This document shows, in pieces, positions 1 through 18,742 of a stretch of DNA of 64,000 nt. The stretch comes from Bacilli bacterium (GTDB lineage: Bacteria; Bacillota_I; Bacilli_A; RF39; UBA660). The position numbers were made by a program, and so were the translations under genes. The notes under the pieces were generated by a model, which made no database searches, was not told the DNA's origin, and worked only from the letters and a program-made list of their open reading frames with translations. Location: positions 16,019 to 80,018 of the forward strand of contig JAGHHZ010000031.1 of NCBI GenBank assembly GCA_017887425.1. Reading direction: 5' to 3'. Position 1 is the first letter of the stretch. Every line of letters starts with the position of its first letter.

Positions 1-1
1 A

Positions 2-520
2 GGTAATTTTGCAAGTACTAAAGTCGAAGTTAATTATATTGACTTAACAGGTATATCTTCATTTGAACAAGCTAGTATTAATAACGAACTTAGTTTTGAA
101 GATAGTATTTTACCAGATTATAAAATAAATATTACAGCTTATGATATTCAAAGTGAATATAAATTAGAATACAATTTTTGCGTAAAAAACGAGTGTTATG
201 AATCATATGAATATTTAAAACCAGAAGTAACTTCTAATTATGATAAAGCACTTCTAAAAATTAGAGGGACATTAACTAAAGAAACAAGTTTATCAGGAAT
301 ATATGATTTATATGACTTTATTGAAAAATTTGGTACTTTATCATATACCATTGACGGTGAAGAAAAATATCAATCTGTTCAATTTAAAGAAGTTGTTAGT
401 AAAAAATTAAGAGAAACAGACACTTACTATTTAGAAGTACTAGAAGAAGTAAAAGATGCTTCTAATATTTCGTTTATTTTTACAATAAGAAATAAAAATT
501 ATGAATATATTATAAAATAG
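2..520 (+). CDS. hypothetical protein, C-terminal part (ORF enters from upstream of window)
   Basis: The frame starting at position 2 is open to the TAG at 518-520, and the ORF runs in from upstream of the window. Same strand as the operon that follows. Confidence 0.4.
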   Translation, partial: GNFASTKVEVNYIDLTGISSFEQASINNELSFEDSILPDYKINITAYDIQSEYKLEYNFCVKNECYESYEYLKPEVTSNYDKALLKIRGTLTKETSLSGIYDLYDFIEKFGTLSYTIDGEEKYQSVQFKEVVSKKLRETDTYYLEVLEEVKDASNISFIFTIRNKNYEYIIK

Positions 521-570
521 TGTTTAAAAAACAATTACAATATGTTATAATTAAATAATGGAGGAGTAAA

Positions 571-1221
571 ATGAGAAAAATAATTATTGTGTTTATCTTG
601 CTATTACTTGTTCCAATTACGAAAGTTGAGGGTGCCAGGTGCAGTTATAGCGAAATGGCACGTCTTAAAAAAATTGCTGCCAATGTAAATATCAGCTATG
701 ATTATACCGTAAGAAATTCTTCTGCTATATTTACTATAAATTTAATTAACTTGAATGAAGAAATGTTTTTCATTGATCAATCTAATTATCGGCAGTATGA
801 TTACACTACTAATGAATTAAACCTATCCAATTATCAAGGTGGACAAACTATTAGATATGTGTTCTATGCTACAAATCCAGATTGTCAAGAACAACCATTA
901 TATACAATTAGAGTAGTTTTACCTACTTATAATCAATATTATGGTGATGAGGTATGTATTGGCGCTGAAGATTATAGTCTATGCCAAAAGTGGTCGAGTC
1001 ACAATCTTAACTATGATGACTTTGTAGAAAAGGTAACTGAATATAAAAATAGTTTTATTGATCCAAATGACCCTGGTGGCGAAGCCAATCCAGATGGTGT
1101 ATCAATTATACAATTGATAGTTGATTTTCTACTAGACTACTATATATATATTATTGCTGTATTGTCTCTTGTTGTAATTTTATTTTTAGCAATCAGAAAA
1201 AGAGACGACATATATAGTTAA
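571..1221 (+). CDS. secreted, C-terminally membrane-anchored Cys-containing protein, function unknown
   Basis: GGAGGAG RBS upstream. Signal-peptide-like N-terminus MRKIIIVFILLLLVPITKVEG. C-terminal TM IYIIAVLSLVVILFLAI followed by RKRDD. Confidence 0.55.
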   Translation: MRKIIIVFILLLLVPITKVEGARCSYSEMARLKKIAANVNISYDYTVRNSSAIFTINLINLNEEMFFIDQSNYRQYDYTTNELNLSNYQGGQTIRYVFYATNPDCQEQPLYTIRVVLPTYNQYYGDEVCIGAEDYSLCQKWSSHNLNYDDFVEKVTEYKNSFIDPNDPGGEANPDGVSIIQLIVDFLLDYYIYIIAVLSLVVILFLAIRKRDDIYS

Positions 1222-1235
1222 GAGGAGGTAACGTC

Positions 1236-15827: not shown

Positions 15828-16502
15828 ATGAAAAAAATTATATTTTTAAGTCTATTATTACTTATAGTAACCGGTTGTGATGTCCAATACGAATTGGAAT
15901 TTAATGATGAGACTTTGAATGAAACTATTCAGGTAACATTGGATAATTCAATGGAAAGAGAAATCGAACAAATACAAAATCGTCAAGTATATGCGATATT
16001 TAATAATTATGATCAAAATCTTTATAATGTTGATTATAGTAAAGGTTTAACTAATTTTAAAGCCACTTATACATATACTTATGAAGCAAGCAATTTTAAT
16101 CAATCATTATTTAACAATAATTGTTTTGATGCTTTTAGCTTTGTAAAACAAGATAATAATTATATCTTATCAACAAGTGAAGGCTTTAAATGTATGACTG
16201 TGGAATATTTTCCCATTGAAAATTTAAATCTCACTTTAACAACTAACCATGAAGTTATTGAAACAAATGCCGATAAAATTGAAGGGAGAAAATACATATG
16301 GGAAATTAATAATAATAATGCCGACGAAAAAGAAATATATATAAAATTTGGCGAAGTAAGACAAAGAAATTTTTTCGAAAAAATAATTGATTATATCATC
16401 GAAAACAAATTTACTTTTATAGTTGCTGGAACAATCATTTTATTGTTAGGGGTTAGTGTGACAACTATTATAATTATTAGTAAAAAAAATAATGAAATTT
16501 AG
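15828..16502 (+). CDS. lipoprotein with additional C-terminal TM anchor (T4SS accessory, function unknown)
   Basis: Lipobox LLLLIVTGC near the N-terminus. C-terminal TM FIVAGTIILLLGVSVTTIIII followed by SKKNN. Confidence 0.55.
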   Translation: MKKIIFLSLLLLIVTGCDVQYELEFNDETLNETIQVTLDNSMEREIEQIQNRQVYAIFNNYDQNLYNVDYSKGLTNFKATYTYTYEASNFNQSLFNNNCFDAFSFVKQDNNYILSTSEGFKCMTVEYFPIENLNLTLTTNHEVIETNADKIEGRKYIWEINNNNADEKEIYIKFGEVRQRNFFEKIIDYIIENKFTFIVAGTIILLLGVSVTTIIIISKKNNEI

Positions 16503-16552
16503 TTAATTATGTGATATACTGTTATATAGGAATAATTAAGAGGTGAACCTAA

Positions 16553-18712
16553 ATGAAATTAAAATTTAAAGCGTCAGCTAAAGACTATTTAATTTTTGTT
16601 ATATTTGCAATTGTTTTATTATATTTTGTTGCTATCGCAGTATTAAATCTTTCAAGTTTTGCAACTGATGGCCGTTTTCATGGATTTAATCCTTTTCCAG
16701 CTTTTTCTTCACAATTTATAGTTCCAACTATTGTTGGCTATATCTTTGCTCTTATTTTTATAATTACTAGTGTTTCATCTTATTTCTTTGATCGTGATAA
16801 AGGATTTGGTTTTAGTACGGGAGCTAAAGAAGAAAAAGGTTATGCTAGATGGGCTGATGAAAAAGAATTTAAAAAACAGGATAAAATTTATAAAGTTATA
16901 CCTAGTCAAGAAACTTGTGAACATGCAGGAATTCCACTAATCAACAATGGTAAAGAAATTTGGGTTGATGGTGGCGAGTATCACAACCTTATATTGGGTT
17001 CGACTGGTGCTGGTAAAACTCAAACTATGGTTCAACCAATGGTTCGTATTTTAGCTAAAAAAGGTGAATCAATGATTATCACTGACCCTAAAGGTGAAAT
17101 ATACGAAAATAATGCTGAAATGTTAAGAGAAAAAGGTTATAATATTGTTTTACTTAACTTTCGTGATCCCCAAAAAGGAAGCGCTTGGAATCCTTTAGGT
17201 TTACCTTATCAATTATACAAATCAGGGAATAAAGATAAAGCTAATGAGTTATTAGATGACTTAGCAATGAATATCCTATATGATGATAAAGCGCAAAGCC
17301 AAGATCCATTCTGGGAAAAAACTTCTGCTGATTATTTTACTGGTTTAGCTTTAGCATTATTTGAAGATGCTAAAGAAGAGGAAATAAATTTAAATACAAT
17401 TAACTTAATGACAACTGTTGGTGAAGAAAAAATAGGTAATACAACTTATATTAAAGAATATTTTGGCTATAAAGATAAGGCTAGTCCTGCTTACATTAAT
17501 GTTTCTTCAACCATTATGGCTCCTAATGATACTAAAAGTAGTATCTTATCAGTATTTAAACAAAAAATTAAATTATTCTCATCAAGAGAAAACTTATCAG
17601 AAATGTTAAGTCATAGTGATTTTGATTTAAAAGATATCGGGCGTAAAAAAACAGCAGTATTCTTAGTAATTCAAGATGAAAAGAAGACATATCACTCTTT
17701 AGTTACAATATTTATTAAACAGTGTTATGAAACATTAATCGATGTTGCTCAAGAATCAGGTGGTAAATTACCTTTTAAAACAAACTTTATCCTAGATGAG
17801 TTTGCCAATATGCCACCATTAAAAGATGTTACGACAATGGTTACAGCAGCTCGTAGTAGAAATATTCGTTTTACCTTTATTATTCAGAACTTTGCTCAAT
17901 TATATCAAGTATATGGTAAAGAAAATGGAGAAACAATTAAAGGTAACTGTGGTAATATTATTTACTTAATCAGTAGCGAATTAGCTTCACTAGAAGAAAT
18001 TAGTAAATTATGCGGTGAGGTTAAATCAAAAGAAAAAGATAAAACAGCTAGTACACCTTTAGTAACTGTTAGTGATTTACAAAGATTACCAGAAAATACA
18101 ATTATAGTTTTAAGAATTAGATCTATGCCTTTTAAAACTAAAGTTGTTCCTGACTGGAAAATTCAAAAAGAAGGTGGCTGGGGAAAATCTTATCCTAAAG
18201 CTACTTATCCAACGAGAGAAAAACAAGAAATTAAATTATTTGATTTAAAAGCTTACGTTGATGCTAAAAGAGAAACAAAATTAAATGATATGATGTCTTC
18301 ATTTAATCGTCCTCCAGTTCCTCCTGTCGCACCTCGTGATTCTAGACCGACCGGTGGAAATCAAAATAAGCCAATAAATCAACCAGTTAAAGAAGATAAT
18401 TTTGATATTGATGCATTAGTAAAGCGTATTGATGCTAAAATAGCTGAATTAGAAGAACAAGAAAAACAAGAACAATTAGCTAAAGCTCAAGGCAAGGCTG
18501 ATATCAAAGAAAATAAAGCAGATTCTCAAGATTCAAACTCTCAAATTATTGAAGATTCAAAAACTTCTACTGATGTTCAATCAATTTCAACTTCAACGGA
18601 AAATAAAGTTGTTGAAGAACCAAAGATTGTATTAAAAGAAGAAGAAAACAAAGTAATCAATGGTGTTACTGATGACCAATTCTTTGATGATTTCTTTAAT
18701 GATGAGGATTAA
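16553..18712 (+). CDS. type IV coupling protein (VirD4/TraG family)
   Basis: Two N-terminal TMs. Walker A ILGSTGAGKTQ and Walker B NFILDEFANM. Long Pro-rich then acidic C-terminal tail. Confidence 0.85.
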   Translation: MKLKFKASAKDYLIFVIFAIVLLYFVAIAVLNLSSFATDGRFHGFNPFPAFSSQFIVPTIVGYIFALIFIITSVSSYFFDRDKGFGFSTGAKEEKGYARWADEKEFKKQDKIYKVIPSQETCEHAGIPLINNGKEIWVDGGEYHNLILGSTGAGKTQTMVQPMVRILAKKGESMIITDPKGEIYENNAEMLREKGYNIVLLNFRDPQKGSAWNPLGLPYQLYKSGNKDKANELLDDLAMNILYDDKAQSQDPFWEKTSADYFTGLALALFEDAKEEEINLNTINLMTTVGEEKIGNTTYIKEYFGYKDKASPAYINVSSTIMAPNDTKSSILSVFKQKIKLFSSRENLSEMLSHSDFDLKDIGRKKTAVFLVIQDEKKTYHSLVTIFIKQCYETLIDVAQESGGKLPFKTNFILDEFANMPPLKDVTTMVTAARSRNIRFTFIIQNFAQLYQVYGKENGETIKGNCGNIIYLISSELASLEEISKLCGEVKSKEKDKTASTPLVTVSDLQRLPENTIIVLRIRSMPFKTKVVPDWKIQKEGGWGKSYPKATYPTREKQEIKLFDLKAYVDAKRETKLNDMMSSFNRPPVPPVAPRDSRPTGGNQNKPINQPVKEDNFDIDALVKRIDAKIAELEEQEKQEQLAKAQGKADIKENKADSQDSNSQIIEDSKTSTDVQSISTSTENKVVEEPKIVLKEEENKVINGVTDDQFFDDFFNDED

Positions 18713-18713
18713 T

Positions 18714-18742
18714 AATTACCCCATTTAAACAATGGGGTAATT
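18714..18742 (+). terminator. strong intrinsic terminator AATTACCCCATT-TAAAC-AATGGGGTAATT
   Basis: Perfect 12-bp stem starting 2 nt after the stop codon, followed by a T-rich tail (TTATTT). Confidence 0.7.

Follow-up and report, generated by a model that had tools for sequence, protein, structure and literature searches.

Can a type IV secretion system (T4SS) of the monoderm type be joined to the machinery of a type IV filament, and what would such a machine do on a bacterial chromosome? This question is raised by a 64,000-nt stretch of DNA (hereafter, the window) from a Bacilli bacterium of the order RF39 (assembly GCA_017887425.1, contig JAGHHZ010000031.1, positions 16,019 to 80,018 of the forward strand). 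RF39 is an abundant and prevalent order of the human and animal gut, whose members are uncultured and have small genomes and many auxotrophies. A preliminary description of the window had assigned the genes between positions 1 and 18742 to a Tad-like pilus kit that continues without a break into a conjugative T4SS, and had regarded this architecture as undescribed. Reviews present Gram-positive T4SSs as systems without VirB11 and pilins (PMC12857230, PMC4027160), and the profile set for the mating-pair formation (MPF) type MPF_FATA reports no pilin homologues (PMC4027160).

We found that the locus is probably a vertically inherited core cluster of RF39, in which a divergent Tad-like filament kit and an MPF_FATA-type T4SS channel serve the cell itself. 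What is new here is the recognition of a complete, divergent filament kit in a familiar class of transfer systems from Gram-positive bacteria, a class of which one member appears to be a domesticated core locus of RF39.

Two halves packed into one cluster

The window is AT-rich (about 28% GC), and its positions 1 to 18742 contain most of a chromosomal cluster of ~20 kb, whose genes are co-directional and tightly packed (Table 1). Every substantial open reading frame (ORF) in this interval lies on the + strand, and all of the genes that the preliminary description had named were found where it had placed them. The start of the cluster had to be corrected: it lies upstream of the window, in a 532-aa ORF that ends at about position 520.

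Stop and start codons overlap as ATAATG at positions 4582, 6831 and 11486, the ORFs for the VirB3-like protein and the N-terminal domain of VirB4 share 32 nt (10932–10963), and the other intergenic gaps measure 2–50 nt, with larger ones of 266 nt (6134–6399) and 103 nt (8657–8759). The two junctions cited earlier as signs of continuity are correct, namely TAATG at 6829–6833, between the second 143-aa pilin-like gene and the 329-aa TadZ-like gene, and the passage from the Tad-like half to the T4SS half, where the TadZ-like gene ends at 7820 and the first VirB2-like gene starts at 7830, leaving a gap of 9 nt. With these overlaps and this short gap, and with a strong terminator-like hairpin at the end, the two halves appear to form one transcription unit, as had been proposed. 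A possible internal break lies in the 266-nt gap, in which a terminator-like hairpin (6188–6209) is followed by a promoter-like site (6345–6373). We gave little weight to promoter-like sites, because their number (133 observed, compared with 112 expected from shuffled sequences) barely exceeds the expectation in AT-rich DNA.

A divergent Tad-like kit in the first half

Gene by gene, the families of the first half correspond to a Tad-like type IV filament kit and those of the second half to a monoderm T4SS, in agreement with the preliminary description, and the kit proved to be divergent. A CpaB/RcpC protein, one of the marks of a Tad/Flp system, is present: it exceeds the gathering score of Pfam RcpC, and its orthologue profile matched by hhalign both CpaB of pXO1 (99.7%) and CpaB of the canonical Tad locus of Carboxydocella (98.1%).

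The two platform proteins required deeper profiles. Orthologue profiles built from RF39 alone, in which the effective number of sequences (Neff) was about 2, were too shallow to detect TadB, TadC or TadZ, and the addition of Bacillus plasmid members allowed the detection of TadB and TadC. For platform 1, an initial homologue search gave only near-identical RF39 proteins, and we used an exhaustive search of representatives together with a search seeded with distant members. The family has few members (259 representatives in a set of 1.8 billion proteins), and one of its members carries the UniRef name 'type II secretion system F family protein'. The family profile, which included Bacillus plasmid members, matched canonical TadB by hhalign (96.5%, E 1e-9, 227 columns), and its comparison with TadC was negative, which fits the specific assignment of one protein as TadB-like and the other as TadC-like. 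The AlphaFold2 model of platform 1 (predicted local distance difference test, pLDDT, 80) matched the EpsF/GspF cytoplasmic domain best among PDB structures (probability 0.94, template modelling score 0.63); the E-value of this fold match, 1.2, is not significant, and the match was used as support only.

Platform 2 was connected to TadC through a chain of profiles. The RF39 platform 2 profile matched that of the second platform protein of plasmids (96–97%), and the plasmid profile and the pXO1 ORF alone matched canonical TadC at 85–92%, and not TadB. A mixed platform 2 profile matched the platform 1 profile at 92%, and direct BLASTP between the two window proteins gave no match. These comparisons support a remote homology of the pair to TadB/TadC. 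The expectation that both the ATPase and the platforms would be recognised by curated models was borne out in part: the ATPase passes Pfam T2SSE, whereas Pfam T2SSF was matched by none of 13 platform 1 family members (the window protein and 12 diverse relatives).

Four families of this half, namely the 86-aa protein, the two 143-aa paralogues and the DUF5411 protein, share a short charged leader, summarised as M-K-E-x-x-G, that ends in Gly and is followed by a hydrophobic helix, and this pattern is conserved across species. The DUF5411 protein is an addition to the pilin-like proteins listed earlier; its gene precedes that of CpaB at the same position on a pXO-like contig (L179), and its comparison with TadG gave a weak hhalign match (32%). 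In the 86-aa protein, the candidate major pilin, the first nine residues (MKEAAGEAN) are invariant in 25 orthologues, Pilin_N was matched weakly (E 0.013), and an 86-aa ORF occupies the equivalent position on the same pXO-like contig. The two 143-aa paralogues are 34% identical to each other, and the second of them weakly matches a 120-aa ORF at the equivalent position in pHTβ. Judged from their sequences, the leaders have the layout of prepilin-type (class III) signals without the Flp or Com consensus; the Flp motif G/xxxxEY is not present, the leader M-K-E-A-A-G being followed by E-A-N-M-T, with no Glu/Tyr at +5/+6. From this layout, the leaders are predicted to be cleaved. Separately, we noted a conserved CC pair in the 86-aa protein.

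The last gene of the half encodes a 329-aa protein that had been described as TadZ-like, with a receiver-like N-domain and a degenerate P-loop. The description stands as an architectural resemblance, and membership in the TadZ family is not established. The AlphaFold2 model (pLDDT 69) has an N-terminal β-α repeat domain and a C-terminal α/β domain, and its Foldseek matches include ParA, MinD, BcsQ, HypB and MeaB/IcmF (E 2e-5 to 1e-3). The Walker A position reads K-N-x-T-x-x-S-G-A-T-T, in which Lys is replaced by Ala, and this is conserved in 24 sequences. At the sequence level, Pfam, homologue searches and hhalign gave no match to TadZ or to any relative with an assigned function.

A monoderm secretion system in the second half

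By its homologies, the second half is a monoderm T4SS of the MPF_FATA type, in which VirB4, a coupling protein, VirB6-like and VirB3-like proteins and a wall hydrolase were all found. Among the last three, the VirB3-like assignment is the weakest; by phmmer and hhalign, this protein matched the DUF5592 protein at the equivalent position of pHTβ. The two VirB2-like proteins are 52% identical. Matches to T4SS_pilin (PF18895) cover nearly the whole model at 14–18 bits, below the gathering score of 26.6, in five of seven VirB2-like proteins; among divergent orthologues, four of five matched this model, and one also matched CagC.

The main part of VirB4 (72–96% identical across RF39 loci) exceeds the cutoffs of Pfam AAA_10 and P-loop_TraG and gives full-length matches to Mbov_0397 and to the C. 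difficile model CD1110, at scores below their equivalog cutoffs. VirB4 is encoded by two ORFs joined by an ATAATG overlap, which corrects the preliminary description; as the split is kept in other RF39 loci, it is not a sequencing error. The wall hydrolase gene is the most variable among species. With regard to the integrative and conjugative element (ICE) of Mycoplasma, the NCBIfam models that best describe the window's VirB6-like protein and VirB4 are Mbov_0396 and Mbov_0397, with scores under the equivalog cutoffs (for VirB4, 360 vs 590 bits). To our knowledge, the Mycoplasma ICE has no T2SSE/platform module.

A side observation concerns the C-termini of the VirB2-like proteins, in which a motif W-x-C-x-x-C-F-[VIL]-N...C follows the second transmembrane helix (window positions 8180–8261 and 8590–8656; orthologues in loci L024, L028, L069 and L071). 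Such a motif is not usual in pilins of the VirB2 type, and it suggests heads that are linked by disulfides or metal.

A secretion ATPase of a third clade

The placement of the ATPase had been framed as a choice between CpaF and VirB11/TrbB, and it belongs to neither. In a neighbour-joining tree, it grouped with the ATPases of pBS72 (pLS20 family), pHTβ, Listeria pFV3 and pXO1 (bootstrap 92), whereas CpaF formed a separate clade (bootstrap 100) and VirB11 together with TrbB formed another (99); the tree is small and unrooted with no outgroup, and shows three clades with the sister pair not resolved. The protein scored under the cutoff of every NCBIfam equivalog (VirB11, TIGR02788, 111 vs 250 bits; TrbB_P, 94 vs 305 bits; TadA-type, 90 bits). 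In tblastn searches against plasmids, the Gram-positive CpaF/VirB11 family (125–146 bits) was matched better than Gram-negative CpaF (82–88 bits) and VirB11/TrbB (57–77 bits). The best PDB match was CpaF, aligned over residues 7–298 and both domains, whereas VirB11 aligned over the core only. On these sequence comparisons, the ATPase is neither a canonical TadA nor a VirB11, and represents a third clade tied to conjugation operons of Firmicutes.

Because the tree could not be rooted, the ATPase might act on the T4SS in a VirB11-like manner instead of driving a pilus. In that case no type IV filament would be made: the ATPase would be a functional VirB11 under VirB4, the platform and pilin-like proteins would be parts of the T4SS channel, and the VirB2-like proteins would form the sole pilus, if any. 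The top NCBIfam models of the ATPase are indeed those of VirB11 and TrbB, its clade stands unresolved between CpaF and VirB11, the pLS20 literature treats the corresponding gene as VirB11 (PMC8557374), and the pilin-like proteins fail curated pilin models. However, VirB11 systems contain neither a GspF/TadB-type platform nor CpaB, and both are present here and homologous to Tad components. The PDB and plasmid searches also favoured CpaF over VirB11, with longer and better alignments, and the combination of a Gly-ended leader with a hydrophobic helix in four families is a hallmark of prepilin-type proteins. We therefore judge a filament-less VirB11 system to be improbable, and retain the divergent Tad-like kit as the better description of the first half.

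The same sub-module in Gram-positive transfer operons

The claim that the architecture was undescribed did not survive comparison with plasmids, since the same sub-module is found on pLS20, pMG1/pHTβ, pAW63/pXO2, Listeria plasmids and pXO1; there it is annotated as a VirB11 with hypothetical proteins. One of the refuting conditions given in the preliminary description thereby applies: the ATPase and the platforms fall inside accessory families that belong to conjugation systems already known from Firmicutes. In pLS20, gene 37 is listed as a 'putative VirB11', genes 38–39 as polytopic unknowns and genes 40–41 as small N-anchored unknowns; the authors pointed out that gene 37 contradicts the view of Gram-positive T4SSs as VirB11-less, and that no pilus components are encoded (PMC8557374). 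Coding sequences 22–17 of pAW63/pXO2 show the same pattern (PMC1196294). On the pMG1-like plasmid pHTβ, a CpaF/VirB11 ATPase is accompanied by two ~270-aa proteins and small ORFs, and then by a protein of the TrbC/VirB2 family, a CD1115-type VirD4, a membrane protein of the pLS20_p028 family, DUF5592 and VirB4, and Listeria pFV3 has the same linked sub-module next to VirB4/VirD4.

The operons of the pLS20 family, pMG1/pHTβ, pAW63/pXO2/pBT9727 and Listeria plasmids share with the window an ATPase followed by two polytopic proteins of ~250–300 aa and several small N-anchored proteins, in an operon that also encodes a VirB2-like protein (pHTβ), a VirB6-like protein (pLS20_p028 family), a VirB3-like protein (DUF5592/PrgI), VirB4, a hydrolase and a CD1115-type VirD4. 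Their ATPases form one clade with that of the window, and accessory genes at equivalent positions match weakly. The systems also differ. Those of the pLS20 type are borne on plasmids with a relaxase (MOBP/MobP2), replication genes and adhesins, whereas the window cluster is chromosomal and order-wide and no relaxase was found with it. In pBS72, VirD4 lies ahead of the ATPase. CpaB and a TadZ-like gene, both present in the window, are not evident in the annotation of pHTβ or pBS72, and the identity between the window and plasmid ATPases is only 27–30%.

Plasmid pXO1, of the Bacillus cereus group, carries cpaB and genes for a MinD-like ATPase, a CpaF/VirB11 protein and the two platform proteins; PrgI and a VirB4-like gene follow at a distance of 12 kb downstream. 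The pXO-like contig L179 has the order of the window, that is, DUF5411, CpaB, (TadZ), ATPase, two platform proteins and the 86-aa ORF, and the composition and order of pXO1-type modules (L179; L090) agree with the window from the DUF5411 and SAF/CpaB genes to the 86-aa ORF. In these modules, in contrast to the window, the TadZ-like gene lies between CpaB and the ATPase and has an intact AAA_31/MinD domain, whereas the window gene is degenerate and follows the pilin-like genes; furthermore, the pXO1-type modules are plasmid-borne, and in pXO1 the T4SS genes lie ~12 kb away and do not abut the module.

A canonical Tad/Flp pilus, with the set TadZ-TadA-TadB-TadC-Flp-TadE/F-TadV-RcpC/CpaB as for example on Carboxydocella pCCELLA01, likewise comprises CpaB, an ATPase, a TadB/TadC-type pair, small pilins with pseudopilin-like proteins and a receiver + MinD-type protein. 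The window cluster differs from it in that it contains no prepilin peptidase, its pilin-like proteins fail the Flp, TadE and Pilin_N models, its platforms fail T2SSF, its ATPase lies outside the CpaF clade, the P-loop of its TadZ-like protein is degenerate, and the kit is fused to T4SS genes.

A Tad-like reading of the 'unknown' plasmid genes, with a TadB/TadC platform and prepilin-like proteins, was not found in the accessible literature, which did not include Grynberg et al. 2007 on pXO1; no literature link between RF39 and such a system was found.

A fixed chromosomal locus across RF39

The surroundings of the cluster are those of a chromosome. Directly downstream of the terminator lie a rhodanese gene, rmuC, rnr (RNase R) and smpB, and further downstream the genes for YsxC, Der, RNase HIII, ParE/ParC, Alr and HisRS. 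Beyond the upstream end of the window, longer related contigs carry the 532-aa cluster gene, a glycyl-radical enzyme with its activase, and ScpA/ScpB; scpAB was located upstream of the cluster in 24 loci.

We scanned a one-genome-per-species collection with the ATPase, confirmed at least 573 stretches and kept 80 loci for comparison, in all of which the ATPase is at least 71% identical. These loci originate from uncultured 'Bacilli'/'Tenericutes' metagenome-assembled genomes of the gut, including Acholeplasma sp. CAG:878, Candidatus Fimihabitans and a circular 1.2-Mb genome; the first two belong to the GTDB order RF39 (PMC8035907). Some loci are labelled Muribaculaceae, Roseburia or Ignavibacteriales, at odds with RF39, and we take these to be mislabelled bins. 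Orthologues of the 532-aa ORF occupy the same position in 68 of the 80 loci, the 216-aa ORF is conserved in 67, and neither protein has a Pfam or NCBIfam match.

Gene order was kept while divergence was graded, with identities of 71–93% for the ATPase, 53–97% for the platforms, 28–89% for the pilin-like and VirB2-like proteins and 74–96% for VirB4. A metagenome scan centred on VirD4 (59–85% identical in 80 metagenome loci) showed that the 3' half of the cluster, together with rhodanese, rmuC, rnr and smpB, is syntenic down to 59% VirD4 identity. Conserved order and flanks combined with graded divergence argue for vertical inheritance at a fixed locus, and not for a mobile element. Megablast of the region against plasmids gave no match, so that at the DNA level the region does not correspond to any known plasmid or ICE. 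In the ORFs scanned (positions 1 to ~50 kb and a further 10 kb upstream), we detected no family of relaxases, integrases or replication proteins, in a scan that did not cover oriT. The label 'conjugative' in the preliminary description is not warranted for this copy, given the absence of a relaxase and integrase from the scanned ORFs, the housekeeping flanks and the conservation across RF39; the relaxase and integrase that it had suggested looking for upstream were not found in the 10 kb before the window.

These data bear directly on whether the cluster is part of a genuine ICE, whose relaxase, oriT and recombinase would be located beyond the window and in which the Tad-like pilus would serve mating-pair formation. 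VirD4 belongs to a conjugation-type family, the closest characterised relatives are conjugative plasmids, and one related contig (L004) has a serine recombinase ~9 kb upstream. Nevertheless, many divergent species have the same locus with the same housekeeping neighbours and with protein identities that fall in step, housekeeping genes follow the terminator directly, and the region examined contains no relaxase or integrase. The L004 recombinase was also considered as an ICE boundary and rejected: it lies beyond the genes shared by all contigs of the same species and is absent from the others, and so represents a different insertion. We regard an ICE as very unlikely, and a vertically inherited RF39 cluster as the better account of its position. 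A phage origin and a defence system were likewise dropped, as nothing in the gene content pointed to either.

The same comparison shows where the cluster tolerates change. Insertions are concentrated at two hot spots, one after the 216-aa ORF and the other between the pilin gene and the first 143-aa gene. In three loci (L023, L055 and L068), the cluster ends after the platform/pilin genes and is followed by genes that are unrelated or have housekeeping functions. The two halves can therefore be uncoupled, at least physically, and they may be independent neighbours, that is, an adhesive Tad-like pilus for gut colonisation beside a separate T4SS. Besides these three loci, an ATPase–platform cluster of locus L181 stands alone, the order TANB77 has an order-wide CpaF-type pilus cluster for which no T4SS is reported (PMC11680825), and promoter-like sites precede several internal genes in addition to the hairpin at 6188–6209. 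Against such independence, the linkage recurs in distant replicons (the pLS20 family, pHTβ, pAW63/pXO2, Listeria plasmids and pXO1), and the ATPase clade is specific to these T4SS-linked loci. Moreover, the break or insertion point falls inside the pilin set and not at the boundary of the Tad and T4SS genes, and the TadZ-like and 143-aa genes stay with the VirB2-like genes, the first of which is 9 nt from the TadZ-like gene. Two independent systems appear unlikely to us, and we continue with a single cluster of two functionally linked halves.

Several of these variant loci have features of their own. In L023 (Acholeplasma sp. CAG:878), the small pilin gene is directly followed by a gene (13283–16126) whose 947-aa product starts with a canonical type IV prepilin N-terminus (…G|FTLIELL…) and contains Ig-like segments in repeats, after which the locus passes into housekeeping genes with no T4SS genes. 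In L044, the circular 1.2-Mb RF39 genome, two Cys-rich secreted paralogues of ~860 aa lie between the 216-aa ORF and the DUF5411 gene (3385–8677), and unrelated genes form a second insertion between platform 2 and the pilin gene. In L181, from another small-genome organism, a minimal chromosomal cluster at positions 8952–13297 has genes for a T2SSE ATPase, for a 491-aa protein distantly related to platform 1 and for a protein of 379 aa, together with tiny ORFs, with housekeeping flanks and no T4SS nearby.

Proposed function of the cluster

The whole arrangement probably descends from an ancestral design common to the transfer operons of pLS20, pMG1/pHTβ, pAW63/pXO2 and pXO1. According to this model, the ATPase, which is of the hexameric type, and the platform pair would assemble the pilin-like proteins into a filament or a short pseudopilus and push it out across the wall, with CpaB and the degenerate TadZ-like protein as putative assembly or positioning factors. 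The filament would make or stabilise cell–cell contact, in a manner similar to the R64 thin pilus in liquid mating. The hydrolase would then open the wall, and the VirB4/VirB6/VirB3 channel, fed by VirD4, would move a macromolecular substrate. In RF39, the machine would have lost its link to a relaxase or mobile element, and its likeliest role would be contact-dependent exchange or acquisition of DNA or another macromolecule with neighbours; the absence of a relaxase and the fixed locus point to a function for the host. Filament formation, the substrate and the direction of transport are predictions of this model.

Known systems offer partial parallels. The thin pilus of IncI R64 and the PAPI-1/GI-type elements also associate a type IV filament with a T4SS, for which contact in liquid has been proposed (PMC12857230); they differ in that they use Gram-negative type IVb pili that include a secretin and have an operon of their own on a mobile element, and their module is not homologous. 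Patescibacteria have chromosomal, relaxase-less T4SSs derived from MPF_FATA, with tandem VirB2-like genes (PMC12102498). As in RF39, these systems occur widely in a lineage with reduced genomes, in most cases lack a relaxase, and have VirB3, VirB4 and VirB6 of the monoderm type. They belong to another phylum, however, the genes for their type IV pili lie apart, and their T4SS locus is not reported to contain a T2SSE/platform module; there, the T4SS has been shown to be essential for epibiosis. Transfer of pLS20 needs fluid conditions (PMC11730352). The liquid mating of the plasmid relatives pLS20 and pMG1 would be circumstantial support, by analogy, for a contact-making filament. Plasmid pMG1 reportedly transfers efficiently in broth, and the archaeal Ced DNA-import system is said to be among the nearest precedents. 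A further precedent is the CpaF-type pilus cluster found throughout the order TANB77 (PMC11680825).

Several points weigh against a filament-assisted T4SS that serves the cell. None of the pilin-like proteins passes a curated pilin model of Pfam or NCBIfam (Flp, TadE or Pilin_N), and no prepilin peptidase of the Peptidase_A24 type was detected in the ORFs of the cluster or in those scanned elsewhere in the window, a gene that could be elsewhere in the genome. The model of the TadZ-like protein is of modest confidence (pLDDT 69), and a solved TadZ structure was not among its top 50 fold matches. To these can be added the VirB11-like action that the ATPase might have, the loci L023, L055 and L068 in which the first half occurs without the second, and a relaxase that may possibly lie elsewhere in a genome of which the window covers 64 kb. 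Both the filament and the transfer are, in this organism, deduced from the gene repertoire. Taken together with the homologies, the recurrent linkage and the fixed position, we still consider a core RF39 cluster of filament kit and secretion channel to be the probable explanation.

Features of the cluster and of the rest of the window

The coordinates and family evidence for the cluster are collected in Table 1.

Table 1. Genes and signals of the RF39 cluster (window coordinates)
Position	Strand	Feature	Evidence
1–520	+	3' end of 532-aa ORF, first cluster gene; polytopic N-terminus and large extracytoplasmic domain	Full ORF seen on upstream-reaching contigs, directly before 571–1221
571–1221	+	216-aa secreted Cys-rich protein with C-terminal membrane anchor	Signal peptide and transmembrane helix read from sequence
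1236–1643	+	DUF5411 protein, N-anchored, pilin-like (minor pilin candidate), leader MKESFWG	Pfam DUF5411 176 bits
1660–2499	+	CpaB/RcpC-like pilus assembly protein	Pfam RcpC 31.5 bits, above cutoff; TIGR03177 E 8e-11
2502–3653	+	T2SSE-family secretion ATPase, Firmicutes 'CpaF/VirB11 family' clade	Pfam T2SSE 97.6 bits
3680–4582	+	TadB-like platform 1, T2SSF-fold inner-membrane protein	hhalign to canonical TadB; AlphaFold2/fold match
4582–5364	+	TadC-like platform 2, distant paralogue of platform 1	Transitive profile chain only; start overlaps preceding stop
5413–5673	+	86-aa major-pilin candidate: leader MKEAAG, EAN, hydrophobic helix, Cys-containing head	Orthologue alignment
5702–6133	+	143-aa N-anchored minor-pilin-like paralogue a	Leader ends in Gly before hydrophobic helix; kept in 62 of 80 loci
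6400–6831	+	143-aa N-anchored minor-pilin-like paralogue b	Leader M[KR]EA[IL]G
6831–7820	+	TadZ/CpaE-like 329-aa protein: receiver/flavodoxin-like N-domain, MinD/ParA-like domain, degenerate Walker A	AlphaFold2, Foldseek
7830–8261	+	VirB2/TrbC-like protein a: signal peptide, two transmembrane helices, C-terminal CxxCF motif	Topology read from sequence
8300–8656	+	VirB2/TrbC-like protein b	Pfam T4SS_pilin E 0.003, near whole model
8760–10625	+	VirB6-like polytopic channel protein, long Gly/Ala-rich charged C-terminal extension	Pfam TrbL_4 E 2e-5; NCBIfam Mbov_0396 (ICE transmembrane protein) E 1e-11
10646–10963	+	VirB3/PrgI-like small membrane protein	Weak PrgI match; precomputed PrgI_like match
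10932–11486	+	VirB4 N-terminal domain as separate 184-aa ORF	NCBIfam VirB4_plasma E 3e-13, model positions 98–276; precomputed TraC-like match
11486–13270	+	VirB4 ATPase, main part	NCBIfam Mbov_0397 360 bits, positions 295–891; CD1110 181 bits
13291–15825	+	SpoIID/LytB + CHAP cell-wall hydrolase, VirB1 analogue	Pfam SpoIID 61 bits, CHAP 45 bits; TIGR02669 86 bits
15828–16502	+	Lipoprotein	Lipobox signal; weakly conserved, 23–41% identity
16553–18712	+	VirD4-type coupling protein, CD1115 family	NCBIfam conju_CD1115 296 bits vs cutoff 250; Pfam T4SS-DNA_transf 190 bits
18714–18742	+	Intrinsic-terminator-like hairpin closing the cluster	12-bp stem, 4 GC pairs, T-rich tail, directly after VirD4 gene

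The window contains a second set of T4SS-type genes at about 51400–64000, comprising a DNA methylase, an adhesin with thioester/SpaA domains, a sortase, a VirB6-like protein (pLS20_p028, Mbov_0396) and a VirB4 (Mbov_0397, 443 bits) that runs past the window end. As the preliminary description had stated, this second system uses the adhesin and sortase that are conventional in Gram-positive systems, and it has no T2SSE ATPase; it is probably a real ICE. Two HTH_3 (Xre-type) proteins are encoded in the window, one of 227 aa in the housekeeping region (41403–42086) and one of 225 aa in the region of the second T4SS (60216–60893).

Two observations concern other parts of the window. A 136-aa ORF at 48146–48556 matches only the N-terminal ATPase domain of SpoIVA (190 bits), and the next ORF (48601–49617) has no family match; the fragment may represent a sporulation gene that is truncated or decaying, in a lineage with reduced genomes. 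Directly after smpB, a 1531-aa ORF (23339–27934) that has no Pfam or NCBIfam match occupies the most AT-rich part of the window (GC 19.5–25%).

Implications

The cluster and its plasmid relatives correct the generalisation made in reviews that Gram-positive T4SSs universally lack VirB11-class ATPases and pilins. They also provide a testable function for 'unknown' genes, namely genes 36–41 of pLS20, their equivalents in pMG1/pHTβ (vancomycin-resistance plasmids), and those of pXO1/pXO2, and the filament kit may explain why these plasmids mate well in liquid.

A further-reaching proposal, which we put forward tentatively and hold to be possible but doubtful, is that RF39 has domesticated a conjugation-derived T4SS along with a filament machine, as a core organelle fixed in the chromosome for contact-dependent traffic, either exchange or import of chromosomal DNA, or a dependence on partners as in Patescibacteria, with the corollary that the pLS20/pMG1/pAW63/pXO1 class assembles a filament of type IV pilins. 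If true, the corollary would contradict the textbook picture of the Gram-positive T4SS as pilus-less and VirB11-less. For RF39, the cluster represents a candidate machine for cell–cell interaction that is large, conserved and relaxase-less, in parallel to the T4SS that is essential for epibiotic Patescibacteria. If such an organelle, or a dependence on partners, does exist in RF39, it could bear on the resistance of the order to cultivation.

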